A stretch of DNA of 48,953 bases from Verrucomicrobiia bacterium (GTDB taxonomy: Bacteria; Verrucomicrobiota; Verrucomicrobiia; Palsa-1439), in the NCBI GenBank assembly GCA_049511095.1, contig JBEKYJ010000002.1:1-48953 (forward strand), read 5' to 3'. Below the pieces are notes generated by a model. That model had not been told where the DNA came from, did not search any database, and saw only the letters and a list, made by a program, of their open reading frames with translations. How positions within the stretch are numbered: position 1 is the first letter of the stretch; each line of letters starts with the position of its first letter. Positions 6,866 through 35,418 of the stretch are shown here, one piece after another. A program made the translations under genes and the position numbers.

Positions 6866-7197
6866 CGGCACGCCAATTGATGTTGTAGCCACGCCGCCTG
6901 CTCGCGTGCCGTTTACGGAGCTCTGCCGGCGTGTTCGTCCGCCGTTTGCTTCCGTCCGTGATTGTAGGGCGCGATGCCTGTCGTGTAGGTATCGCGCCGT
7001 TTCGAACCCATCCGTCGCCCCACCATGTAGCCACGGCTTGCCCCGCCTTCCCCCCAACGCTCCAACATTCACCACGTTTTACGTGGCTCCAGCACTCCAA
7101 CACTCCCCCCTGTCTTCTGCCCTTTTTGGCTTCCTTTGTACATAAAACCACCCTCCCGGAGCGGTATTTTGGTACTTTTTTCCCCATTTTTTCCTCT

Positions 7198-7288
7198 TTT
7201 TTGCAAAACGAACCCAACTCTGTTTTTTTCATAACTGTTTCATGTCGCGACACATACGCATTTTTCAGTTGGGTTCGTTTGGTAAAAA
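7198..7288. repeat. 22-bp imperfect inverted repeat (tttttgcaaaacgaacccaact / agttgggttcgtttggtaaaaa) with 47-nt spacer, copy 1
   Basis: Read directly; the same arms and spacer length occur at 28095-28185. Confidence 0.9.
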
Positions 7289-7552
7289 AGTACTTTATAT
7301 AGAGAACTCCCCTGCCAACCGACCCCAAAGATGTAGTAGCGGCCTGCTCGCGTGTTGTGTACGGAGCCGTCTCGGCCGCCCTGCAGACGCGCTTCTGTGA
7401 GCCGAGTCCGGTGCCTGGTGTAGCCACGGCTCTGCGAGCCGTGCTGGGTTCACCGGCAAGTCGTCATAGCGTGGGAAGCCGAGCGGGCGCGAGCGACCGC
7501 AACCGAACCGGCCGTCCAGCCTTCGTAGCCGACGACACGCCCAACCCGTCCT

Positions 7553-7623
7553 TTTTCAAAGAACTGTCAGTCATTATACCCGCCTGGCAACACCGTGTCC
7601 AGCAAAAATATCAATTTTCGATA
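7553..7623 (-). promoter_or_regulatory. sigma70 promoter with upstream palindrome and downstream boxA-like motif, copy 1
   Basis: TGGACA(7601-7596)-17-TATAAT(7578-7573), then GTTCTTTGAAAA (7564-7553). Conserved at 28335-28404. Confidence 0.65.
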
Positions 7624-8289
7624 GCCGAGTCCGACCAGACGCCGCACGCCGTACTCCCGCGGCAATCGCCGCCATCCCCTCCTCGGAGGGGAACAAGGGG
7701 TGGGTGCGCCCGCATTCGTTACCCTCGGTACCTTGTAGCCACGCCGCCTGCTCGCGTGCCGTTTACGGAGCTCTGTCGGCGTGTTTGCCTGCCGTCGTCC
7801 CCCCCCTGTAGCGGCGGTCTACGACCGTCGAGCCTGTTGCAGCCGCGCTCGCCAACCGCGGGCCGTTTCTGATGTAGCGTGGGAAGCCGAGTCCTCGAGA
7901 CGCCGCAACTCCTTTCCCGCGGCAATCCCCAGCCCATCCGGGTAGTCGTTGTAGGGCGGGATGCCTGTCGTTTAGGTATCCCGCCGCTGTCGTTGGCATG
8001 GCGCGCCTGCTCGCGAATCCTTTTCGGGGCCCGACCGCGCACTCCGGCCGACCGAAGGTCTCCTCTGTCGCCGTGCCAACCCTGCCCCGCTACGCCGAGC
8101 AATGAGACGCCGCCCGCCGATTTCCCGACCGCCTCGCACGACTGATTTGCCGAACGCCATGGCGAAGCAGAATCGGCATTGACTGTGCGTGGGGAAACCC
8201 TACCATTGCGTCCGCGATGCGGAACGGAACGCAACGCGGCGACAGATTCGGAGTACGCATGACGGCGGCTGGTGCGCCGCGCCAGCCAA

Positions 8290-8580
8290 CGCTCCAACTC
8301 AAAGGCTGGACGGCGGCCGAGACCACGGCCTTTGTCGCCGCGCGCGGGAATTTCGGCACCGTCGAGCAGGCGCAATCAGCCGCCAAAGGCGGGGCGAAAG
8401 TGACCACCACCGCGAAGAATGCGGACCCCGCCGACCTGCAATGGCCGGCGACCGACCCCGGCAACGCCGGCCTCCGCGACCAATTCCGGCTGAACACCTT
8501 TCCACCCGCCGGTGGCAACAGCGCACCGCCGACCCTGCAGCAATTCGAAGCGTCGTTGTACACCACAACCATCAACCCCA
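8290..8580 (+). pseudogene. Probable C-terminal remnant of an unknown protein gene
   Basis: Frame of ORF 8217-8705 has GC3-rich coding-like codons (LQLKGWTAAETTAF...LYTTTINP) but no convincing start. Confidence 0.35.
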
Positions 8581-8628
8581 AACACTCTCAAATTCGCCGC
8601 TTGATTCACGGCGGGCACTACACCCTTT

Positions 8629-9570
8629 ATGAAAATGCAACACACCAAATTCTTCCTTACTCTTACAGCTATCATCGTCTGCATTTCATTCGTGGGAGGC
8701 TGTAATAAAAAATCATCAGGCGAGTCGACCGCAGTATCGCCTGCAAATTTCAAGCCTGTGGACACATCGCTGTCATCCTTTCAGGTCAAACTTGAGGACA
8801 TTCGACGTACGTACACCCAAGATCTTATCTATACTCGCCCTCAGGAGGCCAAGCCGATTGAACTTCTACAGAAGGGATTGGAGACCAGCCTAAACGTGAC
8901 GACCAATCCAAAGCGCAAAGCATCGATTCTATTGACTCTCGCAACCATGGCGTTCACCCGATCGAGCGCACCCGATGCAACAGTTCAGAGCCGATATTTA
9001 TCTGACGCCATCAAGTACGCCTCGGCGTCTGGCTACGTCGAAGCGGAAGCAGTTGCTCACGGCAAACTTGCGATGGTTTATGAATGCCAGAATAACCTTG
9101 AGGCCGCACGTAACGAGGTGCAGCTAGCGCTTGAGACACATAAGAGATTGAAGATGAATGAAGAGACCGCGATAGACCTGTGCAATTTGGGTGTAATCGA
9201 AGCCAATAACGATAAGGCAAACGAAGCGATGCCACATTTTGAGGAAGCATTGAAGCTCGCGCGCAAATCCAAAAGCGACGTCGCCATCGCCTTTTGCTTA
9301 TGCAACCTTGGAGAATGTTATGCTGACATAAGCGGCTTGAACGGCAACACGCAGCGCCTGAACACGATTGTAGAAGAGCTGCAAAAATACCGTAAACTCA
9401 CAGTTCCGTTTTTTTGTTACTACCGCAAACTCAGCTTCGGCGGGCTGTATTATAAAGCAGTAGGTGGCGACCGCCAATTTTACAACTTTATTCCAAATTG
9501 GAGCCCGCAGAACGGTTCTCCAATTCCGTTGGGATATATTGAGGCGCCGTACGAGCTGCCTTGGCCATAG
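8629..9570 (+). CDS. TPR-repeat lipoprotein, hypothetical (cargo gene)
   Basis: Signal peptide with lipobox VGGC; TPR-like helices (LCNLGVIE...EAMPHFEEALKL, LCNLGECY); visibly more AT-rich than the core genes. Confidence 0.75.
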   Translation: MKMQHTKFFLTLTAIIVCISFVGGCNKKSSGESTAVSPANFKPVDTSLSSFQVKLEDIRRTYTQDLIYTRPQEAKPIELLQKGLETSLNVTTNPKRKASILLTLATMAFTRSSAPDATVQSRYLSDAIKYASASGYVEAEAVAHGKLAMVYECQNNLEAARNEVQLALETHKRLKMNEETAIDLCNLGVIEANNDKANEAMPHFEEALKLARKSKSDVAIAFCLCNLGECYADISGLNGNTQRLNTIVEELQKYRKLTVPFFCYYRKLSFGGLYYKAVGGDRQFYNFIPNWSPQNGSPIPLGYIEAPYELPWP

Positions 9571-9609
9571 AATGCTGTGCCCAATCGGCAGCCAAAAGGT
9601 CTGGGGGAT

Positions 9610-9846
9610 CAACGCTCTACTCTTTACACTTCTCTGAGATCAACTCTCCACCCTGTCCGCCAAGCCGAGTCGGACGGAGCCGAAAGCGGCACTAGCCGTC
9701 TGGAGCCGAGTCCTCGAGACGCCGTCGCGGCAAACGCGCCGAATGTTTGCCGTCGGCGCAAACGCCGCTGTCGTTTGCGGCAACCCTCGGCGACGGCTGG
9801 ACCGTCACAGCCTGCGGCGGTTATGGATAGTGCTATCCATAAAATT
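9610..9846. repeat. Right-hand conserved module, copy 1
   Basis: Identical 30-mer ttacacttctctgagatcaactctccaccc at 9624-9653 and 30116-30145. Palindrome ttatggatag-tg-ctatccataa at 9821-9842, partly retained at 30260-30276. Confidence 0.85.
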
Positions 9847-10025
9847 AGAAGAGTCATTCCTGCACAATCACCTTTTCCCCACTCACTCACCTCAACACAT
9901 TCCCTTTAGCGCAACCCGTAGAGCCTCCAAAATACCTGTTGCTCTGTGCCGCAAGGCTGTGGCACAAACAACATCGGGCCGTCGCACGCACCGGCCACGG
10001 CATCCGAAGGCAGGCGGAGTTGATC

Positions 10026-11342
10026 ATGACAGCACAAGCTTTCCCCGACATCGCCGAGATCAAGTATGAAGGACCGAAGTCGAAGAATCCCCTCGCGTTC
10101 AAGCATTACCGTGCCGACGAGAAAATCGACGGCAAATCGATGCGCGACCATCTGCGGTTCGCCGTGTGCTACTGGCACACGTTTCGCAACCCGCTGAGCG
10201 ACCCATTCGGCGTCGGCACCGCCGTCCGTCCTTGGGATGACGGCTCGAATTCCGTCGCCAACGCCCAGCGCCGCGCGCGCGCCGCGTTCGAGTTTATCGA
10301 AAAACTCGGCGCGCCGTTCTATTGTTTCCACGACCGCGATCTCGCCCCCGAAGGCAAAGACCTCCGCGAGACGAACCGGAACCTCGACGCCGTCGCGAAG
10401 GTCTTGAAGGAAGAACAAGCCCGCACGGGCGTCAAGCTGCTCTGGGGCACGGCCAACCTCTTTTCCAACCCGCGTTACGTGCACGGCGCCGCGACAAGCT
10501 GCAACGCCGACGTGTTCGCGTTCGCCGCGGCGCAGGTGAAGAAGGCGCTCGAAGTCACGCACGAACTCGGCAGCGCAGGCTACGTCTTCTGGGGCGGACG
10601 CGAAGGGTACTCGACCCTGCTCAACACCGACCTCAAGCGGGAACAAGAGCATCTCGCCCGGTTCCTGCACATGGCGGTGGACTACAAGAAAGCCATCGGA
10701 TTCAAGGGCCAGTTTTTTATCGAGCCGAAACCGAAGGAGCCGACGAAGCACCAATACGATTCCGATGTGGCCGCTTGCCTGAATTTCCTGCGCGAGTTCG
10801 ACCTGCTTGACCACTTCCAACTCAACATCGAAACCAACCACGCCACGCTGGCCGGCCATACGATGCTGCATGAACTCACCGTCGCCGCCGCCGCGGGCCG
10901 GCTCGGCTCGATCGACGCCAATCGCGGCGATGAGTTGCTGGGCTGGGACACCGACCAGTTCCCGACCGACGTCTATCTCACGACGCAGATCATGCTCGTC
11001 GTCCTCGGCATGGGCGGCTTCAAGTCGGGCGGCCTCAACTTCGATGCCAAGGTGCGCCGCGAAAGTTTTGAACCCGTGGATTTGTTCCACGCGCACATTG
11101 GCGGCATGGACGCCTTTGCGCGCGGGCTGAAGATTGCCGCCGCCATTCGCAAGGACGGACGGCTCGCCAAGTTCGTGAAAGAGCGCTATACCTCCTGGGA
11201 CAAGGGCATCGGACATGACATCGAGAAGGGCAAGGTTGGCCTGAAGGAACTCGAAGCCTACATGCTCCAAAAGGGCGAAGCCGACACGAACACGAGCGGG
11301 CGGCAGGAAATGCTGGAGAACATCGTTAACGAATTCATCTGA
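10026..11342 (+). CDS. xylA: Xylose isomerase (class II)
   Basis: [49 protein letters not shown]; GGAG RBS before ATG 10026. Confidence 0.97.
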
Positions 11343-11364
11343 ACCGTAGCTCACCGCATATATT

Positions 11365-12879
11365 ATGAAGAATCTCGATTCTCTCGAAATCTGGTACGTC
11401 ACCGGTAGTCAACATCTCTACGGAGAAGCGGCGCTGAAAAAGGTGGCGTCAAACTCGCGCAAGATCGTCGAGGAACTCAACGGCTCGAAACGCCTGCCGC
11501 TGAAGATCGTGTTCAAGCCCGTGCTCACCGGGCCGGACGAAATCCGCCATCTCTGCCTCGAAGCCAACCACGCACCGAAGTGCGCCGGGTTGATCCTCTG
11601 GATGCACACCTTCTCACCTTCCAAAATGTGGATCGGCGGGCTCTCCTCCCTGAAGAAGCCGTTCTTGCACTTGCACACGCAGTTCAATCGCGATCTCCCA
11701 TGGGCCGAGATCGACATGGATTTCATGAACCTCAACCAGTCCGCCCACGGCGACCGCGAGGCGGGGTTCATGCACACGCGGTTGCGGCTGAATCGCAAAG
11801 TCGTCGTCGGCCACTGGTCGGATGCCGAAGTGCAGGACCGCGTCGCCGCCTGGATGCGTGCCGCCCGCGCGTGGCACGATTGGCAGGGCGCCAAGTTCTG
11901 CCGTTTCGGCGACAATATGCGCCAGGTCGGCGTCACCGAAGGTGACAAAGTCGCCGCCGAGGCGAAGCTGGGCTATGCGGTCAACGGTTACGGCGTCGGC
12001 GACCTCGTGAAGTTCGTCAACGATGTCGGCGACGCGGCCATCAACCGTCTCTGTGACGAATACGAGCAACGCTACGACGTGGCCCCGGAACTCCGCAAAG
12101 CCGGCGCGCGCCACGAATCCCTCCGCTACGGCGCGCGCACCGAACTCGGCCTGCGCGCCTTCCTCAAGGCGGGCGGTTTCAGAGGCTTTACCACTACGTT
12201 CGAGGATTTGCATGGCCTGAAACAATTGCCCGGCCTCGCCGTCCAACGCCTGATGGCCGACGGCTACGGGTTCGGCGCGGAAGGCGATTGGAAAACCTGC
12301 GCGTTGCTCCGCGCCATGAAGGTCATGGCCGCCGACCTCACCGGCGGCACGTCGTTCATGGAGGATTACACCTACCATCTCCATCCCGACGGCCATCTCG
12401 TGCTCGGCGCGCACATGCTCGAGATTTGCGAATCCATCGCCGCCGGCAAACCCTCGCTGGAAATCCACCCGCTCGGCATCGGCGGCAAAGAAGACCCCGT
12501 GCGCCTCGTGTTCAACGCGCCGGCCGGCCCCGCGATCAACGCTTCCATGATCGACCTCGGCAACCGCTTCCGCTTGCTCGTCAACGAAGTGGACGTCGTC
12601 AAGCCCCCGAAGCCGTTGCCAAGACTTCCCGTGGCCCGCGCCATTTGGAAATGCCGGCCCGATTTCAAAACCGCCTGCGCCGCGTGGCTTCAGGCCGGCG
12701 GGGCGCACCATACCGGGTTCAGCTACGCGGTCACCACCGAACACATGGAAGACTTCGCCGAAATCGCCGGTCTCGAATTGGTCGCGATCGACGCGAAGAC
12801 AGATCTGCGCGCCTTCAAACAGCAACTCCGTCACAACGAGATCTATTATCATCTCGCTCCGGGACTGGGACGGCTATGA
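11365..12879 (+). CDS. araA: L-arabinose isomerase
   Basis: [55 protein letters not shown]. Confidence 0.97.
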
Positions 12880-12905
12880 CAAGTAACCAATGGTGAAAGG
12901 GTCCG

Positions 12906-14009
12906 ATGGCTAAACGCACCAAAACGATTGTGAAAGCGGCTCCCACGCCGCGATCTTCACCCCTCATCCGTCAGTCAGTAGCCGCCGCCCCGGCGAAGAT
13001 GGGTTCAACCCCCCGTTCCATCTTGGCTGCGCGGCTCCACGGTCCGCGCGACATCCGGGTGGAGCGCGTCGCCCACCCCGGCAAACCCGGCCCCGGCGAC
13101 GTACTCCTGCGCGTCACCGCCACCGGAATTTGCGGCAGCGACCTGCACACGTTCGCCGATGCTCGCATTGGCGACACTGTCCTGAAAGCGCCTCTCGTCC
13201 TCGGACACGAGTTTGCCGGCGTCGTCGAACAAGTCGGCTCGAACGTAACTGAGTCGCGTCCCGGCACGCGCGTGGCGGTTGATCCCGCTCATCCGTGCCA
13301 CCGCTGCGACCTGTGTGAGCGTGGACATCCCAATCTCTGCCGACGCCTCCACTTCTGCGGCCTGTATCCCGACCACGGCAGCCTGCGCGAGTTCATGATC
13401 GTACCGGCCGACACCTGTTTTCCGGTGCCGGACTCCATCAATGACGAAGCCGCCGCGATGCTCGAACCGCTCGGCGTCGCCCTCCATGCCGTCGATCTTG
13501 CGAAAATACGGCTGGGTGATCGCGTGGCCATTCTCGGCACAGGGCCCATTGGACTGCTGCTTGTCCAAGCCGCCAAACTGGCTGGGGCAGGCGAAATCCT
13601 CGTCAGGGATCCGCTTCCATGGCGCGTGGCGCTCGCCATCAAGTTCGGGGCGAGGCCCCTGCCCGTTCGCGCGGAAGTGGACGTGGCCATCGAAGCCGCG
13701 TGGGGCGGCAATGCCATCGAACAGGTCATCGAACTCGCGCGCCCCGGCGGGCGCGTCGTGCTGGTCGGCATCCCGTCGGAAGATCGTTGTGCGTTCCAAC
13801 ATTCCACCGCGCGCCGCAAAGGTCTGACTGTCGTTTTCAGCCGTCGCATGAAGCACACGTACCCGCGCGCCATCGATCTCGTGGCGAACGGCCGTATCGA
13901 TGTGCGCAGCCTGATTTCGCACCGCGTCCCGTTGGAGAAGACCGCCGCGGCGTTTGCGTTGAACGCCGCCTACAAGGACAACGTTGTGAAAATCATCATC
14001 ACGCGATAG
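12906..14009 (+). CDS. Zn-dependent polyol/sugar-alcohol dehydrogenase (MDR family)
   Basis: [24 protein letters not shown] structural Zn site, GTGPIG. Start may be ATG 12999. Confidence 0.88.
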
Positions 14010-14018
14010 ACGGGGATC

Positions 14019-15701
14019 TTGCACGTGGGCGCGCAATACTCCATCGGCTTGGATTACGGCACCAACTCCGTCCGCTGCTTGATTGCGGATGTGCGCAATG
14101 GTCGTGAAGTCGGCACGGCGGTGTGGGAATACGCGCACGGCACGCAGGGCGTGATTCTATCGCGCGACCCAAACCTCGCTCGACAGCACCCTTCCGATTA
14201 CGTCACGGGCGCGGAGATCACCATCAAGAAGGCGCTTGCACAAACCCGACGCACGGTCAATGGATTCAAACCCGAGCAGGTCGTCGGCATCGGCGTGGAC
14301 ACAACCGGCAGCACGCCTATGCCGGTGGATGCCAATGGCCGAGCCCTCGCATTCGACAAACGATTCGCCCGGGACCCCGCCGCGATGGCCTGGCTCTGGA
14401 AGGACCACACCAGCGTGGCCGAAGCCGCGGAGATTACCGCGAGAGCGCGGGCGGTGCGTCCGCAATACCTCGCCAAGTGCGGCGGAACGTATTCGAGCGA
14501 ATGGTTCTTCAGCAAGATCCTCCGCTGCCTGCGCACGTCGCCCGAGGTGTTCGACGCGGCGCACACGTGGGTCGAGATTGCCGATTGGATTCCCGCGACG
14601 CTCACCGGGACGGAAGCGCCCGACAAACTCACTGTCGGTGTCTGCGCCGCGGGTCACAAGGCGATGTACAACGATGCGTGGGGCGGTTATCCCGATGCCG
14701 AGTTCCTTGCCTCGTTTCACCCCAAGCTCGGTCAATTACGCTCGCGGCTCCGCGCAAAAGCTCACACCATCGAACGCGCCGTTGGCGGGCTGACTTCCGA
14801 CTGGGCCAAACGCACCGGCTTGCGGGCGGGCACACCCGTGGCGGTCGGTGCGTTCGACGCGCATCTCGGCGGCGTCGCCAGCGGCATCGCGCCGGGCACA
14901 TTGGTCAAAATCATCGGCACGAGCACGTGCGACATGATGGTGGCGCCTGTCGGCCAAACACTCGCGGACATCCCGGGATTGTGCGGTATCGTCAACGGCA
15001 GCATCCTGCCGGGTCATTACGGACTGGAAGCGGGCCAGTCCGCTGTCGGCGACATCTTCAATTGGTTTGTGAATTACATCGAACCCGGCGGCCGGAAAAC
15101 CGGCTCGCACGAGACGCTGACGGCCGCCGCGGCAAAGCTCAAACCCGGCGAGTCGGGCCTGCTCGCGCTGGATTGGAACAACGGCAACCGCACGATCCTC
15201 GTGGATCAGCGGCTCACGGGACTGTTGCTGGGCCAGACGCTTTACACGACGCCCGCGGAGATTTATCGCGCGTTGATCGAGGCGACCGCCTTTGGGGCGC
15301 TGACGATCATCAATCGATTCGAGGAATACGGCGTGAAGGTTGAACAGATCATCAACTGCGGTGGCATCGCCGAAAAGAATCCCGTCGTCATGCAGATATA
15401 CGCCGACGTGACGGGTCGCCCGATGAAAGTTTCGCGCTCGGCGCAGACGTGCGCGCTCGGCGCCGCCATCGCCGGCGCGGTCGTCGCCCGGGCGCACCGG
15501 ACCTACGCTGACGCCCAGAAGGCGATGACCGGCGTAAAGAAACGCGCGTATATGCCGAATCCGCAGGCGCACGCGGTGTACCGTGAGTTGTACCCATTGT
15601 ATCGCACGCTGCACGATGCGTTCGGAACTCGCGAGTGGAACGGCAATCTGCACGACGTGATGAAGAAACTGCTGGAAATCCGCGGGCGCGCGAGGAAATA
15701 A
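14019..15701 (+). CDS. araB: Ribulokinase (FGGY family)
   Basis: IGLDYGTNSVR, GVDTTGST, WKDHT, YSSEWF, GAFDAH, GTSTCD, LDWNNGNRT. Start is TTG 14019 or GTG 14025. Confidence 0.93.
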   Translation: MHVGAQYSIGLDYGTNSVRCLIADVRNGREVGTAVWEYAHGTQGVILSRDPNLARQHPSDYVTGAEITIKKALAQTRRTVNGFKPEQVVGIGVDTTGSTPMPVDANGRALAFDKRFARDPAAMAWLWKDHTSVAEAAEITARARAVRPQYLAKCGGTYSSEWFFSKILRCLRTSPEVFDAAHTWVEIADWIPATLTGTEAPDKLTVGVCAAGHKAMYNDAWGGYPDAEFLASFHPKLGQLRSRLRAKAHTIERAVGGLTSDWAKRTGLRAGTPVAVGAFDAHLGGVASGIAPGTLVKIIGTSTCDMMVAPVGQTLADIPGLCGIVNGSILPGHYGLEAGQSAVGDIFNWFVNYIEPGGRKTGSHETLTAAAAKLKPGESGLLALDWNNGNRTILVDQRLTGLLLGQTLYTTPAEIYRALIEATAFGALTIINRFEEYGVKVEQIINCGGIAEKNPVVMQIYADVTGRPMKVSRSAQTCALGAAIAGAVVARAHRTYADAQKAMTGVKKRAYMPNPQAHAVYRELYPLYRTLHDAFGTREWNGNLHDVMKKLLEIRGRARK

Positions 15702-15746
15702 GGTTGTGGCCCCGAGCCTCTCTCGAGGCTAGAATCAGCCGTCATC

Positions 15747-17107: not shown

Positions 17108-17114
17108 GTTTGCG

Positions 17115-19954: not shown

Positions 19955-20040
19955 AGCTTGTGCGGCTGTCAATCCGCGCGAGACCGGAAGGCCTCAACGT
20001 CGTACCCATCGACCACCGTTGAGCCGAAGTTGATCAGTTC

Positions 20041-21201: not shown

Positions 21202-21206
21202 ACAAC

Positions 21207-21410
21207 ATGAAACTCTATCTCTACTACGAAAACGTGGACCGTCCGCTGGTGGTCGATATTCCCGACAACGAAGTTGATGGGTTTTTGCAGGAATATGAAG
21301 AAGCGCTGCACGACACGTCGGTCGAGACATTCCAGTGGAAGAACTCCAGCTTCCGCATCGCGGGTCTGATGGCCATCGTGCACGAGAAGCACACCCCGGT
21401 ACGTCCATGA
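21207..21410 (+). CDS. Small acidic hypothetical protein (67 aa) between sucC and sucD
   Basis: [19 protein letters not shown]...HTPVRP; ATG 5 nt after the sucC stop and ATGA overlap with sucD; host-like codon usage. Confidence 0.75.
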
Positions 21411-22288: not shown

Positions 22289-22289
22289 G

Positions 22290-22949
22290 ATGGCAACTGA
22301 CGGGCCAATCCGTTCCACGGTGCGTCAGCGTCAAGCTACGGATGACGCCGACGCGCGCCGGACCATTCCCCACGAGGAACTGATGAAGCTTCCCGTGGTG
22401 CGGTATCGCGGTACGATCCGGCTGGCGGCCACCGAGGCAGACTTGCACCGTGCCGTGCATGACATCCGATCGGAGCGCGTGGTGGGCTTCGACACGGAGA
22501 CGCGCCCGACGTTTCGCAAGGGCCAATCGCACGCGCCCAGCCTCGTGCAGATCGCCACGAGCCATGCGGTGCATCTGTTTCCCCTCGCGCGACTCGACTG
22601 CTCGCGGGCGTTGGCCGAAGTTCTCGGCGATGCGCAGATCGTCAAAGCCGGCGTGGCGCTCGCCCGTGATCTCGCCGAACTGCAGAAGCTGTTTCCGTTT
22701 ACGGCGGCGAATGTTGTGGATCTGGGCGACATTGCCAAGCACCGCGGAATGGAACAAACCGGCTTGCGCAACCTGACTGGTCTGTTTCTCAGCGGGCGCG
22801 TCACCAAGGGCCCGCAAACATCGAATTGGGCAAGGCCCAACCTCGCGCCGAGCCAGCTTTGCTACGCCGCCACGGACGCCTGGGTTTGCCGGGAATTGTA
22901 CCTGCGTTTCGAAAGACTCGGTTGGCTGCCTTTGCCACCGCATCGGTAA
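22290..22949 (+). CDS. DEDDy 3'-5' exonuclease (WRN/RNase D-like)
   Basis: VGFDTE, SNW, YAATDA motifs. Confidence 0.88.
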   Translation: MATDGPIRSTVRQRQATDDADARRTIPHEELMKLPVVRYRGTIRLAATEADLHRAVHDIRSERVVGFDTETRPTFRKGQSHAPSLVQIATSHAVHLFPLARLDCSRALAEVLGDAQIVKAGVALARDLAELQKLFPFTAANVVDLGDIAKHRGMEQTGLRNLTGLFLSGRVTKGPQTSNWARPNLAPSQLCYAATDAWVCRELYLRFERLGWLPLPPHR

Positions 22950-23001
22950 GCCGAAGTGAAACGATTTGCAGCCTGACAGCATCGAACCCCGTGGAGGAAC
23001 G

Positions 23002-23460
23002 ATGAAATCCAAAACTATAAGGGCACCTGATCTGACACAACGGCCGCCGCGCAGTCCGCGTGTGCGGCTCGGCGGTTATGCCATCCTCGCCCGCTGTCTC
23101 GACAAGGGCCGCGCCACGCTGGCGGGCAAAAATGGCGAGTACGACTTCGCTTGCCCGCTCGACCAGCGATTCCTCGAATTTGCGGGCATCAAGGCGGGCG
23201 ACTTGAAGAACCGGTTGGCCGCGGGGGATGGCGACGGAGAAATCCTGGAATGGATCGCCAAACATTCGTCGACGAAGCGGCAACCGTGGGAGATCGCACA
23301 GTGGAGCGCGCTGGCCGACCAGCGCGGCCCGACGGACGTGGAGACGCGTGAGTATTTCACCGGGCTGCTGGCCAAACTCAGCAAGAAGCGCGACGATGTT
23401 GTCGGGTGGTTCGACTTGCTCGACCTCGACGACTTTGTGAGCTTCGGCGGAAAACCCTGA
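23002..23460 (+). CDS. DUF5069-like protein
   Basis: DLTQRPPRSPRVRLGGY..LAR..DK.RA...GEY...CPLD, FDLLDLDD; GGAGG RBS before ATG 23002. Confidence 0.8.
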   Translation: MKSKTIRAPDLTQRPPRSPRVRLGGYAILARCLDKGRATLAGKNGEYDFACPLDQRFLEFAGIKAGDLKNRLAAGDGDGEILEWIAKHSSTKRQPWEIAQWSALADQRGPTDVETREYFTGLLAKLSKKRDDVVGWFDLLDLDDFVSFGGKP

Positions 23461-23549
23461 GCAACTGCGAGCTGTCGTCGCATCGGAAAAGAAGACGGGT
23501 GCCTCTTGCTTGCCGCTCGAGGCGCCCGATTCTTTAGAGCGTAAACGTC

Positions 23550-23936
23550 CTAGCTTCCCTTGTCAGTCGCTTCGCCGGCTTTCGTCCAGCCAGAGATGCC
23601 CGCGGGAAGATGCTTGATATTGGTATATCCAAGTTTTTGGGCTGCCTCGACAGCTGCCTTGTAGGCCTGGCACTGCGGACCGCCGCAATAGGCCACCACC
23701 AATGCTCCCTTGTCGCTCGGAAGGACGCTGGCCAGCTTATCCGGGTTGGCTTTGAAGTCAATCGCGCCGGGGATGTGCCCCGCCTTCCATGACTTGCTTC
23801 CATTGGCGTCAAGGAGCGTGACCTTCTTGGCTTCGATCGCCGCCTTGAGTTCCGGAATGGTAATGTCCTGCACCTCACCCGCGTAAACAGTGGCCACCAG
23901 GAGAAGTGTTGTTGCTAATGCGAAGAATTTCTTCAT
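23550..23936 (-). CDS. Exported rhodanese-like domain protein
   Basis: Signal peptide; GHIPGA, YCGGPQC, GISGW. Confidence 0.88.
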   Translation of the reverse strand: MKKFFALATTLLLVATVYAGEVQDITIPELKAAIEAKKVTLLDANGSKSWKAGHIPGAIDFKANPDKLASVLPSDKGALVVAYCGGPQCQAYKAAVEAAQKLGYTNIKHLPAGISGWTKAGEATDKGS

Positions 23937-24107
23937 ATCACCCCATAGGTTGGATGGATTGTTTGTTCATATTGCCTCGCCACGAGGCAAAAACTGCGAC
24001 CCTTTTCCTCTACCATACAACCAACGCGGAATCAAGTTGGGCTCGCACTTTCTCCAGCTCCATTCTCGCGCGAACTGCGGGAGCGCGATCGTGGGTCACC
24101 ACGCAAG

Positions 24108-24977
24108 CTAGGACGACTTCACTTCGACGCGGATGGGCTCCTTGACGTGAAGATCGCGCTGCGGGAATGGGATCTCGATGCCGTGCTCCTTGAACTTGTC
24201 CCAGATGGCGAAGTTCAACTGGCTCTCAAGTGTCCCGGGACGGTGCGCCATGTCATCCGCCCACACCCGAAGCTCGAAATTAAGCGAGCTCTCACCGAAC
24301 TCCTTGAAGACCACGGTGGGCACTGGATTCTTGAGCACACTTGGATTGCCCTCGGCAATTTCCAAAAGAAGTTTTTCAACGAGATGCGGATCACTGCCGT
24401 AGCTGACGCCCACGTTGATACGAAGACGCACGCGCGGATCGACGTGCGTCCAGTTGACGACCCGGCTGGATATGAATTCGGAGTTCGGCACGATGACCAT
24501 GATGTTGTCGTTGGTCAATACGTGCGTGGCGCGCGCGCCGATGCGCATCACCTTCCCCACCGTGTTGTTGCCGAGATCAATGCGGTCGCCGATCTGAATC
24601 GGCCGCTCCGCGAGAATGACCAGGCCGCTGACGAAGTTGCTGACGATGTTCTGCAGGCCGAAGCCGATCCCGACGCCGAGCGCGCCCGCAATCACCGCCA
24701 GCGAACTGAGCTTCACGCCGAACGTTTCCACACTGATCAGCAACCCAATCACCAGCACCACGTAGCTCGCGATGCGGGCGATGGCGTATTGCTGACCGAC
24801 GTCGAGCTTCGTGCGCGCCAGAACGCGCGTGCGCAACAAGCGGCGAATCACCCGCGACAACAGCACCACAATCGTGATGACCACGACAAACTCGACCATG
24901 GTCGCCAGTGAAACCGGCGTTTGCCCCAACTGAAACAGTGGCTTGGTGAAAACCCCGAATATCTCGCTCCATGTCAT
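24108..24977 (-). CDS. Small-conductance mechanosensitive channel (MscS family)
   Basis: GVGIGFGLQNIVSNFVSG, VPNS, VGVSYGSD, IEIPFPQRD. Confidence 0.93.
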   Translation of the reverse strand: MTWSEIFGVFTKPLFQLGQTPVSLATMVEFVVVITIVVLLSRVIRRLLRTRVLARTKLDVGQQYAIARIASYVVLVIGLLISVETFGVKLSSLAVIAGALGVGIGFGLQNIVSNFVSGLVILAERPIQIGDRIDLGNNTVGKVMRIGARATHVLTNDNIMVIVPNSEFISSRVVNWTHVDPRVRLRINVGVSYGSDPHLVEKLLLEIAEGNPSVLKNPVPTVVFKEFGESSLNFELRVWADDMAHRPGTLESQLNFAIWDKFKEHGIEIPFPQRDLHVKEPIRVEVKSS

Positions 24978-24981
24978 CGGA

Positions 24982-26118
24982 TTACTTTCCCAGCGTGATC
25001 CACCGGCGCGCTTTGGCGGATTTTTCGACAGCGTCGAGCACGATCTGGTTCGCCAAACCGTCTTCGAAGGTCGGTTGCACGGGCTGTTTGTCTACGACCG
25101 CATTAATGAAGTCGGCAACCGTGTGCACGAAGGTGTGCTCGTAGCCGATAATGTGGCCCGGCGGCCACCAGTTGCCGACATAGGGATGCACGCCGCCGCC
25201 TTGCGTGACCAGGATGTCGCGGAACCCACGGCGGTCGGCCGGATCCGCTTCATTGTAGTACTTCAGCCGGTTCATGTCCTCGAAATCAAACACCAGTGAA
25301 CCTTTGCTGCCGTTGATCTCGATCTCGATGCCGTTCTTGCGACCAAGCGCGAAGCGCGTGGCTTCGAGATTGGCCAGCGCCCCGTTCTGAAAACGCCCAA
25401 TAAACATGACCGCGTCATCGACGGTGACTTTGCCTTTCTTGCTCGACTCGCCCGGTAGCGGACGTTCCTTGACGAATGTTTCCATCTGACCGCATACTTC
25501 GCTGAACTCGCCGATAAGGTAGCGACCAAGATCGATGATGTGCGCGTTGATGTCGCCATGCGCACCCGAACCGGAGATCTTGCTCTGCAACCGCCAGACG
25601 AGCGGGAAGTTCGGGTCGACAATCCAGTCCTGCGCGTACCGGGCGCGATAGTGATAGATGGCGCCCAACTCGCCCGCCTCGATCATCTTCTTCGCCAGTA
25701 CGATGGCGGGGATGCGTCGGTAGTTGTGGCAGACCATGTTGACGACCCCGGCTTTCTTCACCGCATCCACCATCTGTCGGGCCTGTTTCACATCGAGCGC
25801 GAGGGGCTTTTCGCACAGGATCGCCTTGCCCGCTTTGGCGGCGGCAATGGCAATCTCGGCGTGCATGTCGTTGGGCGTGTTGATGTCGATGACGTCGATG
25901 GTCGAGTCGTCAACCACCTCACGCCAATCGGTCACGAACTGGTTCCAGCCCCAACGAGTGCAGGCGTTCGTCACGCCCGCCTTTTGTCGGCCACAGATGA
26001 CCTTCAACACGGGCCGGGCTTTGAGGTCGAAGAATTTGTCCGCTTTCAGCCACGCGTTGGAGTGGGCGCGGCCCATGAATTTGTAGCCGATCATCCCGAT
26101 GTTCAGGGTCTTTGGCAT
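24982..26118 (-). CDS. Gfo/Idh/MocA-family oxidoreductase
   Basis: Starts MPKTLNIGMIGYKFMG at 26118; CEKPLA, HNYRR, GDINAHIID. Confidence 0.92.
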   Translation of the reverse strand: MPKTLNIGMIGYKFMGRAHSNAWLKADKFFDLKARPVLKVICGRQKAGVTNACTRWGWNQFVTDWREVVDDSTIDVIDINTPNDMHAEIAIAAAKAGKAILCEKPLALDVKQARQMVDAVKKAGVVNMVCHNYRRIPAIVLAKKMIEAGELGAIYHYRARYAQDWIVDPNFPLVWRLQSKISGSGAHGDINAHIIDLGRYLIGEFSEVCGQMETFVKERPLPGESSKKGKVTVDDAVMFIGRFQNGALANLEATRFALGRKNGIEIEINGSKGSLVFDFEDMNRLKYYNEADPADRRGFRDILVTQGGGVHPYVGNWWPPGHIIGYEHTFVHTVADFINAVVDKQPVQPTFEDGLANQIVLDAVEKSAKARRWITLGK

Positions 26119-26217
26119 AGGCTCGCCTCTCGCCTGCAAAAAAGGTTGAGATTTCGCGCGAAACATTATATTCATTGGCCCAACCCGTTTGTCACGAGAA
26201 AAGAGAGGAATAGGCCC

Positions 26218-27300
26218 ATGAGCATGCCCCATATAAAGTTGTTTATCCCTGGCCCCGTGGAGGTTAGCGATGACACGTTCCAAGCAATGAGCCAGCCCAT
26301 GATTGGGCACCGTGGATCGGGATTCCAAGACCTGTATGCGGCAATTCAGCCCAAGCTGCAAAAAATCCTCTACACGAAGAATCCCGTTTTCATTTCCACG
26401 TCGTCGGCTTGGGGCGTGATGGAAGCATCCGTGCGCAATCTCGTCGCCAAGAAGGTGCTCAACTGTTGCTGCGGGGCGTTCTCCGATAAGTGGTTCGACG
26501 TGAGCCAACGTTGCGGGAAGCAGGCCGAGGCGCTCAAAGTCGAATGGGGTCAACCCATCCTTCCCGAAATGATCGACGCCAAACTGAAGACCGGGCAGTT
26601 CGATGTCGTCACCGTCGTGCACAATGAAACCTCGACGGGCCTGATGAATCCGTTGCCGGAAATCGCCCAGGTGATGAAGAAGTATCCCGATGTGATGTTC
26701 GTCGTCGACACGGTCAGTTCGATGACCGCCCTGAAGATCGACACCGATGCGCTCGGGATCGACGTCATCCTCGCCGGCACGCAGAAAGCCTGGGCGCTGC
26801 CGCCGGGAACCGCCGTGTTCGCCGTGAGCGAGCGCGCTCTGAAGCTGGCCGGGACGATTCCCGGCCGCGGCTACTATTTCGATTTCCTCGAGTTCAAGGC
26901 GAACCACGACAAGAACATGACGCCATCCACACCGAGCATTCCGCACATTTACGGACTCAAGTTCAAGCTCGACCAGTTCGAGAAGGAAGGGCTGGAGAAT
27001 CGCTACGCGCGCCACCTCAAGATGGCACAGAAGACCCGCGAATGGGCCAAATCGCGCGGGTTCGAGTTGTTCCCGAAATCCGGCTACGAATCCGTCACGC
27101 TCACGTGCGTGAAGAACAACAAGAATATCGACGTCGCCAAGTTGCAAAAGACGCTCAAGGACAAATACAAGGTCCTCATCGATGGCGGCTACGGCCCGAT
27201 CAAAGGCAAGAGTTTCCGTCTCGCTCATATGGGCGATGAGACCCTCGACACCGTCTCGCAACTGCACGCGATGCTCGATGATTGCTTGAAGTCGTTGTGA
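26218..27300 (+). CDS. Class V PLP aminotransferase (serine-pyruvate / alanine-glyoxylate type)
   Basis: FIPGPV, HNETSTG, VDTVSS, GTQKAWALPPG, FRLAHMG. Confidence 0.92.
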   Translation: MSMPHIKLFIPGPVEVSDDTFQAMSQPMIGHRGSGFQDLYAAIQPKLQKILYTKNPVFISTSSAWGVMEASVRNLVAKKVLNCCCGAFSDKWFDVSQRCGKQAEALKVEWGQPILPEMIDAKLKTGQFDVVTVVHNETSTGLMNPLPEIAQVMKKYPDVMFVVDTVSSMTALKIDTDALGIDVILAGTQKAWALPPGTAVFAVSERALKLAGTIPGRGYYFDFLEFKANHDKNMTPSTPSIPHIYGLKFKLDQFEKEGLENRYARHLKMAQKTREWAKSRGFELFPKSGYESVTLTCVKNNKNIDVAKLQKTLKDKYKVLIDGGYGPIKGKSFRLAHMGDETLDTVSQLHAMLDDCLKSL

Positions 27301-27809
27301 AGATCACGAAGAAAGCCGTGCTCGACGCCGTCGCATCCTTGATGCGGCGGCGTTTCAATGTTGTAGCCGAACGCGACAAGCAGTTCGTCTGGGGCGATGC
27401 GACGATCCTGGCCGATCTCTACTTCCCCGCCCCGCTCCATTGCATCGTGCAATTTGATGACGCGCCGCATTGCACGCGCGAACGAGCTGCGACGTTCGCC
27501 AGCTATCCATCCGACGCACCCTTGAATTTCGATGTGCGCCGCTATCTCGCCGACCAGGCGAACGGCGATGCCGGCCTCGCGCAAGCTGACATGCTCGCTG
27601 ACTTGCTTCCGCCCAAACGCGGTTTCAATCCAACCATCCGCATCCGTGCCGACGAGATTGAGGAATTGACCGGGCCGATTTCGGACCGCATCGAGTCTCT
27701 GTTTGCGAAGCGCTTCGCCCTTCACGGCGGTACCGCCTTTCATCTGATGGTGGACAACGCCGGCGCCAAGCCGCATTCGCAAACGATGCACCGGGGCGTG
27801 TCGGATTAG
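27297..27809 (+). CDS. Hypothetical protein, possibly a degenerate PD-(D/E)xK/Vsr-like nuclease fold
   Basis: GTGA overlap with the aminotransferase stop; DLYFP...IVQFDD.PH...R...YP...L.FD pattern. Confidence 0.6.
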   Translation: MKITKKAVLDAVASLMRRRFNVVAERDKQFVWGDATILADLYFPAPLHCIVQFDDAPHCTRERAATFASYPSDAPLNFDVRRYLADQANGDAGLAQADMLADLLPPKRGFNPTIRIRADEIEELTGPISDRIESLFAKRFALHGGTAFHLMVDNAGAKPHSQTMHRGVSD

Positions 27810-28094
27810 ACTCAGGTCAATGATTTCCAATCTCCAATCTCCAATCCAGTTTTCCCTCCTGCCCTCGTGTAGTAGCGGCTGTCCCAGCCGCCTTGCCTCC
27901 CCGGTGTAGCCACGCCTCTGCGAGGCGTGTCCGCCGCCTGCCTTCCGTCTCGAGGCGTCGCGCCTCCCCCGAATCTTCACCACGTTTTACGTGGCTTTTC
28001 GGGGCTGAATTCCGTCCCCCTTTTGTCTTCATTCCTCCGCAAAACCACCCCTCCCGGCGCTGTTTTCCACCATTTATTCCCTGTTTTTTTCCTC

Positions 28095-28185
28095 TTTTTG
28101 CAAAACGAACCCAACTCGTATTTTTCCCCAACATCTTCATTTCAAAATACTTCCACATTTTTCAGTTGGGTTCGTTTGGTAAAAA
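28095..28185. repeat. 22-bp inverted repeat with 47-nt spacer, copy 2
   Basis: Arms identical to 7198-7288; spacer 28117-28163 is divergent in sequence. Confidence 0.9.
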
Positions 28186-28334
28186 CCACCTCTTTTTGGA
28201 AAGTTCCATGCCAACCGTCCTCCGGTGCAGCGTCGGCTGTCCCCAGCCGATCCGCCGACCCACGATTCTCTGTCTCTCTGAGGTCTCAAATCTCCGATCT
28301 GCAATTCCCCCCGTCTCTGTACGCCGTCCGTCCT

Positions 28335-28404
28335 ATGTCAAACAACTATCGCCCCTATACCACCGCCGCAACACCGTGTCCAGCACAAATATCGATTCTC
28401 GATA
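28335..28404 (-). promoter_or_regulatory. sigma70-like promoter, boxA-like motif and TATCGA-N3-TCGATA palindrome, copy 2
   Basis: TGGACA(28382-28377)-17-TATAGG(28359-28354), then GTTGTTTGACAT. Confidence 0.55.
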
Positions 28405-29284
28405 ATCAGTCTTTCTTGATTTGTAGGGTAAGCGCCCCGGCCTGCCGTCATTTCCCCGGTAGGGCGCGGTGGCCCACCGCGCCGTGTTCGCCTGCCGTTT
28501 CCCCCTGTTGCCGCGGGCGCTGACCGCGGTCCTCGTCCCTCATGTTGTAGCCACGGCGCTCTGTCGCCGTGCCGAAGTGGTGTAGCCACGGCTCTGCGAG
28601 CCGTGCCGGGTTCGGTGTAACGTGGGCCTGCTCGCGTGTCGTTTACGGAGCTGTCCCCAGCCCATCCGGATCGTCGGTGTAGTAGCGGCCGTCCCTGGCC
28701 GCCTCCGCTCCGTCTCCTCGTCGTTGGCCTGCCCGCGATTCCTAATCGGGGTAGGGCGGGCTGGCTCAGCCCGCCGCTCTGCTTTGTAGGCCGCGTGCCC
28801 TCACGCGGCGTAACCCGTGTCGTCGGTAGGGCGCGGCGGCCCGCCGCACGCGTCGTCCGCTCCGCTCCGCGCTGTCTCCGAATTGTAGGCTCGCCCGCCT
28901 TTGGCGGGACAACGGGACCCGTTGTCGCTGTCGCAGGTACGCGCTCCCGCTCTTGTAGCCACGCCGCCTGCTCGCGTGGTTTACCACGTTCTACGTGGCG
29001 TTTACGGAGCTCTGTCGGCGTGTTCACCTGCCAACCGAGACACAGCTGCGCAGATGGATCGTCTTGGGCTGCACGCGTTGAACTCCGCTACTCGTAGTAA
29101 CCCCGCGGTTCGCCCGCCGCATTTCACCCACACTCTCCAACTGCGCTTCACGCCACGACCAAGAACTACCACTCAAACTGTTTAGCCTGTGTCCTCGCTT
29201 TGGATGATCTGCAAACCTTGCGATTCACTGGCCAGGTTGTTATGCTTGCACGATGTGACAACGCCAGACAATCCGCCCGAGAAC

Positions 29285-29710
29285 ATGCTAAGTCCCAAGA
29301 AAGGCGATAGGCACTTTGATGACCGTGGCAAACGGACTTTCAAGCAGGATATTCTCCTTGCCATTTCCACGGTGGTAATCGCCGGGATCATTTCCTTCGT
29401 CGTTTCCTTTTTTGGGATGATGTACCAACTGCGACAAGCGAGGCAACGCGACATCTACCAAGCCAAAGAGCAAATCTTTAGAGACTTTGTCAAAGCCAGT
29501 GCAAATTGGCGCGAGGCTGTAAAGGAAAAAACTACCCTTAAGCTTAAGTACGATCTAGATCAGTTCTTCGCGGAATTGAACACTATAGTCCCAGCTATCC
29601 TGAGCATCCCCAATTTGCCCCCGAACCTGTCAATAATGCCCTCCAATACACCTACTGTGGCGATCCTTCGCGCGAGGAATCGGGGTCACATCTTTGCATT
29701 TTGCAATTGA
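29285..29710 (+). CDS. Hypothetical single-TM protein (cargo gene), possibly 3'-truncated
   Basis: AT-richer ORF with TM segment ILLAISTVVIAGIISFVVSFFGMM followed by a helical region; start uncertain. Confidence 0.5.
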   Translation: MLSPKKGDRHFDDRGKRTFKQDILLAISTVVIAGIISFVVSFFGMMYQLRQARQRDIYQAKEQIFRDFVKASANWREAVKEKTTLKLKYDLDQFFAELNTIVPAILSIPNLPPNLSIMPSNTPTVAILRARNRGHIFAFCN

Positions 29711-30720
29711 CGGAATGAATTGGAATTGGGGGCGCGTCTAATCATTGTAACAATTATCTAAGCAGTCACCGCCCTCCACTTTCCAACTGCCTGCGCGGCC
29801 ACTCTTTTCCAATCTGCCCTCGCTCCGAGTTTCGCACTTCGGATTTGTTTCGGATTTCGAGATTCGTGTTTCGTGCTTCGCAGCGCCACTTGCCACTCTT
29901 TTCCAATCTGCCCCCTCGCCTTCCGCCTCCTGTCTCTTGCTCCTGCTCTTGCTCCAACGCTCCACCACCCTGAAGAAGGGGTCAGTTCGTTTTTCGTTAT
30001 CATACTGAGTCGAGCGTGCGCCACGTTCGCGGCAGCCTCTTGTCACACGACGACCCGTCGCTTGCCATGATATGCTCCAGTGGAGAGTATCATCTGCGGG
30101 GCAACGCTTTACCCCTTACACTTCTCTGAGATCAACTCTCCACCCGCCACACCCTGCAGCGGTTATAGCCGAACGCGGCACAAGCTGCGTAAGCCGAGTC
30201 AGACGAGACGCCGCACGTCGTACTCCCGCGGCAAACCCGCGATGTTGTTTTCACGGCAAATAGTGCTATCCATAAACTTACAGAACGCCCGGGCTCACAT
30301 CTCTGCTTTCGGGGATTGTCGCGACCGCCTGTAGCAATCGGCGTCACCGCGAAAACGGACAGCGAGTTTGTGTTGAATCGTCCCCTCAACGATTCAACAC
30401 AGCCTCCACCCTCTGCGTCCTCTGTGCCTTTTACCCCGATTCCTTATCGGGGCTGCGTGAGGCAATCCTTCCTCTTCGTGCCTTCGTGGTGAACCTCCGC
30501 CCCGCCTTTGCGTCCCTTGCGTCGCTTGTGCCTTTTTGTGGCAAAACTCTTGCCCGCTTCGTGTTCTTCGTGCCTTTGTGGCAACCCTCCGCACCCCGTC
30601 CTCACGAGGCAACCTCGTGCTGCATCGGCCTCTCAGCGATGCAGCACAGACGGATTCCAACCTCTGCGCCCCTGCCATCCGCGTCCATCCGTGTGGATCT
30701 GTGGCTACGCTTCGTGTCTT
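29680..30720 (+). repeat. Cluster of short tandem and simple repeats plus right-hand module copy 2
   Basis: ggggtca motifs (~29682, ~29977); ccactcttttccaatctgccc x2 (~29799, ~29894); tttcg-type heptamers 29830-29880; module 30102-30276; nonamer-period repeats 30411-30706. Confidence 0.8.
30369..30401. terminator. Strong hairpin, possible terminator
   Basis: tgtgttgaatcgt-cccctca-acgattcaacaca, 13-bp perfect stem; no clear U-tract. Confidence 0.35.
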
Positions 30721-30755
30721 GGCTTCTCCATCTGGTCGCGCAATTCTAGGCTGAG

Positions 30756-35412: not shown

Positions 35413-35418
35413 GGCGTC

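Follow-up and report, generated by a model that had tools for sequence, protein, structure and literature searches.

The window analysed here, meaning the whole stretch of 48,953 nucleotides, lies at the start of contig JBEKYJ010000002.1 of the Verrucomicrobiia bacterium assembly GCA_049511095.1 (positions 1 to 48,953, forward strand). The source genome (G000, its contigs numbered with a C) measures 3.9 Mb in 292 contigs, with a GC content of 59.5%. Two loci of the window, at 6881-9846 and 27826-30290, hold nine short non-coding blocks (a to i) around two different genes, and a first-pass annotation made from the letters had described them as two collinear copies of one modular element. Both loci are intergenic patches built of several independently multiplying repeat families and not the two copies of one cassette. 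One of these families, repeat A, carries a putative hairpin that elsewhere in the genome immediately follows the stop codon of a gene encoding a 286-aa protein, while in both window copies it is accompanied by a promoter-like module, B1, and no gene. On balance, we lean towards a reading in which the copies in the window derive, without a gene of their own, from an undescribed element of gene plus hairpin and are comparable to the REPINs (hairpins formed by pairs of repetitive extragenic palindromes, REPs) that depend on a REP-associated tyrosine transposase (RAYT), and in which they mark the edges of regions of gene turnover.

Repeat families at the two loci

All nine blocks were found in both loci. 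Locus 1 opens on the plus strand with two REP-type hairpins with GTAG heads (6883-6999, with a long form at 6883-6945 and a second one at 6962-6999; families D1 and D14), followed by block a, a small strandless palindromic unit with a CCACGT-TTT-ACGTGG core (7068-7088). Copy 1 of repeat A (7125-7325, minus strand) unites block b (7144-7160), block c (arms 7196-7219 and 7267-7290) and block d (tgccaaccg at 7313), and contains three boxes: TTGGCTTCCTTT at 7127-7138, AAACGAACCCAA at 7206-7217 and TTGGGTTCGTTT at 7269-7280. REP hairpins on the plus strand (7326-7539; e.g., GTAGCCACGGCTCTGCGAGCCGTG of family D5 at 7418-7445) are inserted between A and copy 1 of repeat B1 (7540-7625, minus strand), which includes block e (7575-7623). 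Then come a B2 hairpin unit on the plus strand, GCCGAGTC...GACGCCGC...GCGGCAA (7623-7680), a separate repeat often found behind B1, and a plus-strand REP array placed from the coverage profile (7733-8080; families D1, D2, D6, and D14). The gene of this locus encodes a tetratricopeptide repeat (TPR) protein (8629-9570, plus strand) and is missing from the syntenic locus of the sister-species genome G004, whose genes are ~91% identical to those of G000. Behind it lies the h+i unit (9610-9846, plus strand), split by hairpin repeats into block h (9610-9653), inserts (9663-9815) and palindrome i (9820-9846).

Locus 2 begins likewise with two plus-strand REP hairpins (27867-27937; families D5 and D16) and a block a (27976-27996) whose 21-mer is identical to that of locus 1; a third copy at 28980-29000 is 86% alike (family D13). 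Copy 2 of repeat A (28022-28220, minus strand) has block b from 28041, arms at 28095-28116 and 28164-28185, and block d at 28210. In both loci, the arms of block c measure 22-24 nt, are 91-92% complementary and stand 47 nt apart. Copy 2 of B1 (28328-28404, minus strand) includes block e at 28356-28404, 84% alike to that of locus 1 (family D10), and has TATAGG at its -10 position, a weaker promoter form. The REP array that follows (28430-29034, plus strand; families D1, D11, and D13) has strict GTAG sites at 28459, 28547, 28582, 28751, and 28786, and in its REP at 28953-29034 a block a hairpin is nested (28980-29000). The second gene is a 173-aa open reading frame (ORF) of no known family (29189-29710, plus strand), and beyond it lie further common repeats of the plus strand (29740-30350), namely a segment X (29740-29990) and a segment h-i-Y (30102-30350), in which block h (30102-30145) is 93% alike to its counterpart, with the final 30 bases identical, and a B2-type insert (30146-30259) splits palindrome i. 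Block i has an exact 17-mer match at 9827 and 30260. As the first-pass annotation had noted, the blocks are conserved and the spacers between them diverged, and the two genes are unrelated and AT-richer, each with a GC of 0.49; both are single-copy, as is the whole of 8100-9600. No tRNA gene was found in the window.

The blocks are no chance resemblance, because they are members of repeat families, whose copies were counted by blastn over the whole source genome. Repeat A (~200 bp) occurs in 74 copies and repeat B1 in 51, and 49 of the 74 A copies have a B1 on the same strand downstream (search to 1.5 kb), 32-361 bp away; free of inserts, as at C66:9620-9970, the A-B composite measures ~350 bp. 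Blocks b, c, d, and e thus keep their order and orientation around differing neighbour genes, as had been proposed. The remaining blocks are placed independently, and the families differ in copy number, so the idea of one modular element in two copies does not hold. The B2 unit gave 146 matches, some of which are short and partial, and also occurs alone (e.g., 30192-30243). The palindrome of block a gave 52 short-blast matches, of which ~25 are good. In the window and in C21 it stands upstream of A; in C142, C192, C267, and C106 it stands downstream of B. Copies nested in a REP (28976-29000) and in B2 units of C9 and C46 show that it inserts into other repeats. Within the REP at 28953-29034, GTTTAC stands on each side of the nested copy, a TTAC-like junction that we take to be reminiscent of the target choice of IS200/IS605-type insertion sequences. 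Blocks h and i together form a single unit of ~70 nt, unbroken at C81:15822-15889 and split by hairpins in both window loci; it has 3 copies in the genome, and near the one in C81 there is no A. Block a and the h+i unit are thus additional small palindromic repeats, which insert themselves into the others. Moreover, the two window copies of A are 73.6% alike, and copy 1 is up to 86.6-87% alike to copies on other contigs; the two loci are therefore not a duplicated pair.

Segments X and h-i-Y both recur, in another order, at C81:15822-16190. Within 29798-29920, GCCACTCTTTTCCAATCTGCCC occurs as a direct repeat of two copies, 94 bp apart (family D20), and the same pair recurs at C81:15985-16105. 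A stretch of ~130 nt just 5' of block h (29982-30110), which gave no Rfam match, occurs three times on contig C17 of G004 (at 109168, 111911, and 240530; 85-93% alike), and block h seems to be its 3' end.

The GTAG hairpins of block f (families D1, D4, D5, D11, and D16) had been counted as part of a special element. According to PMC3686654, a REP consists of a 5' GT[A/G]G tetranucleotide followed by a palindrome, and block f has that form in families D1, D5, D11, and D16. A strict pattern (GTAG, 0-4 nt, a perfect 7-bp stem and a loop of 2-9) found 300 sites in the genome versus 73 in a shuffled genome, which is a lower bound because the definition is strict; 227 of the 300 lie outside the called genes, which make up 80% of the genome. 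Seven such sites lie on the plus strand within 27869-28786 and one at 7420. The genome also has seven Y1_Tnp (PF01797) matches above the Pfam cut-off, which are RAYT-type genes. One of the seven was inspected for REP pairing (C21:8331-8843), and arrays of its cognate REP, GTAGTAGCGGCYGTCCCRGCCGCC, stand on either side of it. One copy of this REP lies reversed inside the reading frame of that gene (C21:8660-8685). The hairpins of block f are, therefore, true REPs served by the RAYT genes of the genome and an ordinary part of the finding: the GTAG-headed palindromes, the intergenic arrays and the RAYT gene flanked by its own REP are those of known REP arrays (bacterial interspersed mosaic elements), and nothing essential differs. 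We met no report of REPs for this bacterial group, although no search was aimed at one.

The 286-aa gene family and its downstream boxes

Twenty-five A copies lack a B. In 17 of them, a unit C made of three TTCCAAACC repeats lies on the opposite strand within 1.1 kb, and at 3 of these 17 loci a gene of 286 codons stands between C and A, reading toward A, with its stop codon 10-37 nt from block d. These full C-gene-A units lie at C166:3763-4623, C26:25897-26754, and C232:1447-2316. The genome thus holds a series of 3 C-gene-A units, 14 C-A units without the gene and 49 B-A units. For the window copy 1 of A, the functional strand is taken to be the minus strand, because the gene of the full units and the promoter-like site of B both read that way.

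The alignment of the 74 A copies shows three AAACGAACCCAA boxes: a direct one, an inverted one and, at the outer end, a second inverted one that is weaker. The arms of the hairpin, TTTTTGCAAAACGAACCCAACT and AGTTGGGTTCGTTTGGTAAAAA, lack a GT[A/G]G head and are ~99% conserved, versus 40-80% for the rest of the repeat. Exact boxes are nearly confined to A, with 118 of the 123 in the genome inside it and only 5 outside; the shuffled genome has none. The box was also considered as the end of a kilobase-sized insertion sequence, which was rejected: no such box pairs occur on contig C17 of G004, and exact boxes outside A number 5 in G000.

The association of gene and box extends to other genomes. 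A set of 17 (G000 and 15 others of its genus, together with G022 from a different family) contains 26 family genes. A box follows 24 of them within 600 nt on the 3' side, mostly 21-59 nt past the gene, and none of the 26 has one within 600 nt on its 5' side. A scan for inverted box pairs, with one genome per species, gave 56 stretches versus ~0.1 expected by our own estimate. Of these stretches, 33 lie in one Verrucomicrobiae metagenome-assembled genome (MAG) and the remainder in 19 other genomes, titled as Planctomycetota (Phycisphaerae, Sedimentisphaerales, and Tepidisphaeraceae), Acidobacteriota, Dongiaceae, or Verrucomicrobiia and hence, by title, belonging to four phyla; 3 of the 19 are titled Verrucomicrobiia/ae and may overlap the related genomes already counted. 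The family protein is encoded in 18 of the 19, with 1-32 matches each, including the unpublished genome G335. In the background the family is rare, being absent from all 300 other Verrucomicrobiota and present in 3 of 120 other Acidobacteriota; we give no P value for the co-occurrence, because related genomes are not independent.

The geometry differs between groups. The Dongiaceae genome shows that of the source genus, with boxes at +15 and +102 past the stop codon. Among the Phycisphaerae and Sedimentisphaerales genes, 17 of 18 carry them within the 3' part of the open frame, in reversed order, and in Acidobacteriota only variant boxes with two mismatches were found, recurring at about -104 to -161. 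No shared neighbour gene surrounds the box repeat in 23 loci from other phyla, beyond the homologous Phycisphaerae loci. A text search of the literature with the box and repeat strings returned, among the matches inspected, primers or unrelated text, and the motif may still have been published.

The family to which the protein belongs is very large. A profile built from 25 homologs matches 38,953 cluster representatives at E <= 0.001 and 2,044 at 1e-30, and across phyla the conservation covers ~100 N-terminal residues. For the 286-aa protein itself, searches against Pfam, NCBIfam, PHROG, and the sequences of the PDB gave no match. Its AlphaFold model is all-helical, with long helices, a mean confidence (pLDDT) of 70.6 and a basic, low-confidence N-terminus; Foldseek gave a best PDB match at E 0.096 and nothing below 0.09, and the ESM Atlas returned unnamed clusters only. 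Residue Y250 and several arginines are invariant across the 25 homologs, and no histidine stands in an invariant or near-invariant column, so there is no HUH motif. The first-pass annotation had expected a partner acting in trans, of the HUH or tyrosine recombinase kind; a candidate for such a partner has been found, and it is this family protein, which is neither an HUH nor a tyrosine enzyme. A Toprim_2 domain occurs in one of eight longer forms (P0121, 1,064 aa), which may be a merged gene call. There are two plasmid matches of the family, both annotated as hypothetical, and no phage match. On plasmid pPL62-1 of Planctomyces sp. SH-PL62 (locus L211), a 516-aa hypothetical protein with the family N-terminal domain is encoded 1.2 kb from ParA and RepA genes, and this gene has 2 box-like sites in its 3' part versus 0.26 expected, a number that 5 of 200 shuffles reach.

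Such a protein could also be a DNA-binding factor and not a mobility enzyme, with A, co-opted by the cell, serving as an array of sites to which a chromosomal protein of the host binds and acting as an organiser, silencer, or boundary. In favour of this, the boxes stand in direct and inverted order, and variants of them, AAGCGAACCCAA, are repeated in tandem with an 11-bp period at G004:C17:211693-211715 (two, from 211693 and 211704) and 222602-222635 (three, from 222602, 222613, and 222624), which looks like a protein-binding array. The far better conservation of the arms than of the rest of A, the siting of the repeats at borders between conserved and foreign-looking DNA, and the predicted all-helical fold with its basic N-terminus would fit as well. 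However, the homology among the copies extends over ~350 bp, well outside the boxes, which means that they are products of copying and not of convergence, and A is multi-copy in only 2 of 31 relatives, although the gene is present in 15 of 17 other genomes of the genus. We regard this explanation as very unlikely.

Pairing of the boxes was followed in 15 gene 3' flanks, 14 from the Verrucomicrobia genus and one from the Dongiaceae genome. The two boxes form an 11-pair helix in which 93.3% of cells are paired, versus 23-52% in slid controls; 5 of the 11 pairs show two-sided changes (e.g., C-G in 9 sequences and G-C in 5), and none of 500 shuffles reached the covariation score. Read on the sense strand of the gene, there are 8 G-U cells versus 4 A-C cells. 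The consensus fold of the 74 reverse-complemented A copies predicts the main hairpin alone. Block e is probably a promoter, as had been suggested, and its direction is the opposite of the one supposed: it points into A, away from the gene taken for cargo. On the minus strand of copy 1, the -35 hexamer TGGACA (7601-7596) and the -10 hexamer TATAAT (7578-7573) are separated by a 17-nt spacer and form the best sigma-70-like site in the region, with 11 of 12 matches. Of 50 B copies, 49 keep TGGAYR followed after 16-18 nt by a hexamer, 33 have TAnnnT and 37 a TG extension. A sigma-54 promoter at block d was rejected, since the -12 element is not conserved. A 27-nt match to the B core lies in another genome (L161 on G017:C5), ~640 nt upstream of the start of the isoleucyl-tRNA synthetase gene, in a relative orientation like that of the window and with no A there.

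This arrangement raises the alternative that the A-B units are stand-alone non-coding RNA genes, in which B would be the promoter and the reverse complement of A a structured body that stems from the family gene's 3' untranslated region; the copies would persist through the action of the RNA with or against the protein. The promoter-like site that reads into A and the covarying hairpin would suit it, the excess of G-U over A-C cells leans weakly to the gene sense strand, and A holds no conserved ORF: a small one on its reverse complement was rejected, as the reading frames of C166 and C26 differ. Against it, Rfam gave no match at the gathering score over the whole window and chance-level matches only at 6800-8700 (E 0.4-0.95), there is no consensus terminator, and the near-invariant stems of the 74 copies show no covariation within the genome. 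The spread and polarity of the copies, described below, would not be explained by such RNA genes alone, and we consider this alternative unlikely.

Polarity, synteny and spread of the A-B units

The A-B units have two different sides. Windows of 1 kb on the A side have a GC of 0.606-0.611, with 0-2% of them below 0.55, versus 0.568-0.574 on the B side (+800 to +2000), where 25-33% fall below 0.55 compared with 7% genome-wide (Mann-Whitney P ~1e-5 to 3e-7). Taken in pairs, the B side is the lower in 27 of 33 A-B loci, and the corresponding side in 12 of 15 loci of A without B. Of 22 loci compared with the G004 contig C17, 12 have a syntenic block no more than 380 bp from the A end, and only 1 has such a block less than 1 kb away on the B side. 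With conserved genes next to its A end and low-GC DNA specific to the species past B, the A-B unit marks one edge of turnover regions.

The window itself is collinear with G004:C17 from 1 to 27867. At locus 1, both species have A-B, and G000 alone has the 2.3 kb past B, with the REP array, the TPR gene, and h+i, the intergenic region measuring 3,056 bp in G000 versus 629 bp in G004. At C66, A-B is likewise common to both and the 2.9 kb beyond it are found only in G000. At locus 2, synteny stops right past the A-B patch, and 27868-40190 has no counterpart there in G004; its genes are ordinary accessory ones (e.g., a two-component pair and a beta-helix protein). Elsewhere in the collinear part, a 565-bp stretch of G000 (23506-24071, with a rhodanese-domain ORF at 23550-23936 on the minus strand) is absent at 350684/350685 of G004:C17, 13990-14035 corresponds to 339499-341177 of that contig, where G004 is ~1.7 kb longer between collinear blocks, and 629-1221 corresponds to 112 bp in G004.

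These observations bear on the platform of the first-pass annotation, in which a scaffold a-i would bracket cargo, be non-autonomous and be moved in trans. The side of A-B on which the variable, low-GC genes are found is indeed fixed, and at three orthologous loci (locus 1, C66, and locus 2) A-B is common with G004 and the DNA beyond B differs, so the platform idea has partial support; a capture mechanism, a far-end site, or a circular form was not seen. However, the blocks travel separately, as the C81 copy of h+i and the position of block a on either side of A-B show, the orientation of the genes beyond B relative to the unit varies, and no far-end site is common to them. The window A copies are not each other's closest relatives, and the B promoter faces away from the supposed cargo. 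The TPR gene of locus 1 has a depth equal to that of its flanks in four peat runs, and the contigs of these runs over 4000-13000 gave no credible empty site, circular form or joint across: their joints have short sides (20-36 letters) and lie in repeats, and the listed pieces leave the repeat region unspanned. The likeness to an integron platform is similarly partial. As in an integron, the variable genes are next to a conserved, promoter-bearing non-coding unit and always on the same side of it, but there are ~70 scattered A-B units and the promoter faces away from the variable genes. As previously stated for the interior of the loci, no recombinase was found among the window ORFs tested, and no integrase among those tested in or near both loci; no attC-like site was noticed at the far ends, and neither integrases nor attC sites were searched for genome-wide. 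Taken together, a gene-capture platform is quite unlikely.

The spread of the copies is narrow. Among the 31 relatives, A is multi-copy only in G000 and G004, and many of its copies are orthologous between these two. At C68, an 861-bp A-B patch in G000 stands against 69 unrelated bases in G004, and position 504473 of G004:C17 holds an A where G000 has none. The genes that flank locus 1 lie on different contigs in all 13 other genus genomes that have both, and A is absent from the twelve locus-1 flanks fetched from six of those genomes; locus 1 is a junction limited to the G000/G004 species pair. The repeats could be nothing but decaying junk in dispensable intergenic DNA, with no function, their collinearity a by-product possibly aided by misassembly at locus 2. 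That the patches sit at synteny breaks, as at locus 1, that short-read contigs break at these repeats and that X and h-i-Y recur in C81 would all be expected from it. Yet hairpin arms and promoter core are kept at 90-99% while the rest is kept at 40-80%, the link of gene and box is found across genomes titled as four phyla, and a strict polarity is unexpected of passive junk, so this explanation is highly improbable.

A candidate gene-plus-hairpin element

The reading that we somewhat favour, in which the window copies are gene-less, REPIN-like derivatives of a gene-plus-hairpin element, would work as follows. The full unit would consist of the 286-aa gene with A, a hairpin of two inverted boxes, directly behind its stop codon. 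The gene-less derivatives would join the B promoter to the A hairpin, and ~70 of them would have multiplied in the source and sister species. They would be non-autonomous, the family protein recognising the hairpin or the box as RAYT serves REPINs, and they would be copied in trans in the manner of REPINs, with B driving a transcript through A. Marking the edges of gene turnover is a candidate role suggested by sequence comparison.

REPINs and RAYT, as defined in PMC3686654 and in published abstracts, resemble A in several ways: a long hairpin is made of two short inverted arms with a spacer between them, the copies number in the tens and are intergenic, the repeat stands directly beside a low-copy gene and the copies are limited to one lineage. 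There are also differences. The arms of A have no GT[A/G]G head; its gene is not Y1/HUH and matches no family, and it has the repeat at its 3' side only; and A copies also carry the promoter module B or the upstream unit C of the gene. Miniature inverted-repeat transposable elements (MITEs) and other internal-deletion derivatives of insertion sequences offer a second comparison. Like them, the A units are small, non-coding, and multi-copy, and the series from 3 C-gene-A to 14 C-A units, which keeps both end modules, would fit internal deletion of a parent whose autonomy is presumed. In contrast to them, no terminal inverted repeats were seen, the parent has no recognisable transposase, and no target duplications were noticed by eye in 37 units. 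The outer end of A shares no inverted repeat with the outer end of B or C, the inverted repeat of A being internal.

Several results weigh against this reading. As regards mobility, inspection by eye of 11 A-C and 26 A-B units revealed neither a target-site duplication nor a terminal inverted repeat, and the presence/absence differences at C68 and G004:C17:504473 are replacements with no clean insertion ends. Sequence and structure searches recognised no catalytic domain in the family protein, and its paralogs inside one genome have diverged (66-88% identity), unlike those of a recently active transposase. As regards the partnership of gene and repeat, genome G464 (that of locus L051) has the box repeat and no family gene, the in-frame and reversed boxes of Phycisphaerae mean that the geometry is not universal, and the B core is not next to the gene at any gene locus fetched from relatives. 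The hairpin was derived from the same sequences that were used to test it, and its covariation, which fits a hairpin in RNA or single-stranded DNA, would fit equally well two identical half-sites for a protein dimer. A canonical -10 hexamer is present in only about two thirds of B copies, and the terminator-like hairpin at block b of copy 1 is not a consensus feature. Finally, the gene calls come from a crude, home-made codon model, the synteny with G004 is a limited comparison with its one contig C17 (698 kb), and locus 2 may be misjoined across the repeats that it has in common with C81, where the copies of X and h-i-Y adjoin the flank that follows locus 2 in G004.

A wider proposal can be made tentatively, and we hold it to be doubtful though possible: the 286-aa protein and its downstream hairpin would represent an unrecognised and very large class of selfish gene-plus-hairpin elements, similar to REPIN-RAYT and built around a non-HUH, all-helical protein, whose gene-less offspring would seed or mark the borders of hot spots of gene turnover in Verrucomicrobia and perhaps in Acidobacteria and Planctomycetes. 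If the favoured reading holds, an unannotated family of tens of thousands of clusters would gain a conserved partner in cis, the inverted AAACGAACCCAA boxes, and the way of life of REPIN-RAYT would have a second, unrelated example.

For annotation, long "non-coding scaffolds" in MAGs such as this one prove to be stacks of separate repeats, at which assemblies and synteny break as well. Because the A-B units are strictly polar toward foreign-looking DNA, they could serve as a marker of the sites of gene gain and loss in these peat bacteria. The main interest lies in a very large, unannotated protein family with a conserved putative hairpin partner and, in one lineage, a burst of what may be its gene-less derivatives.

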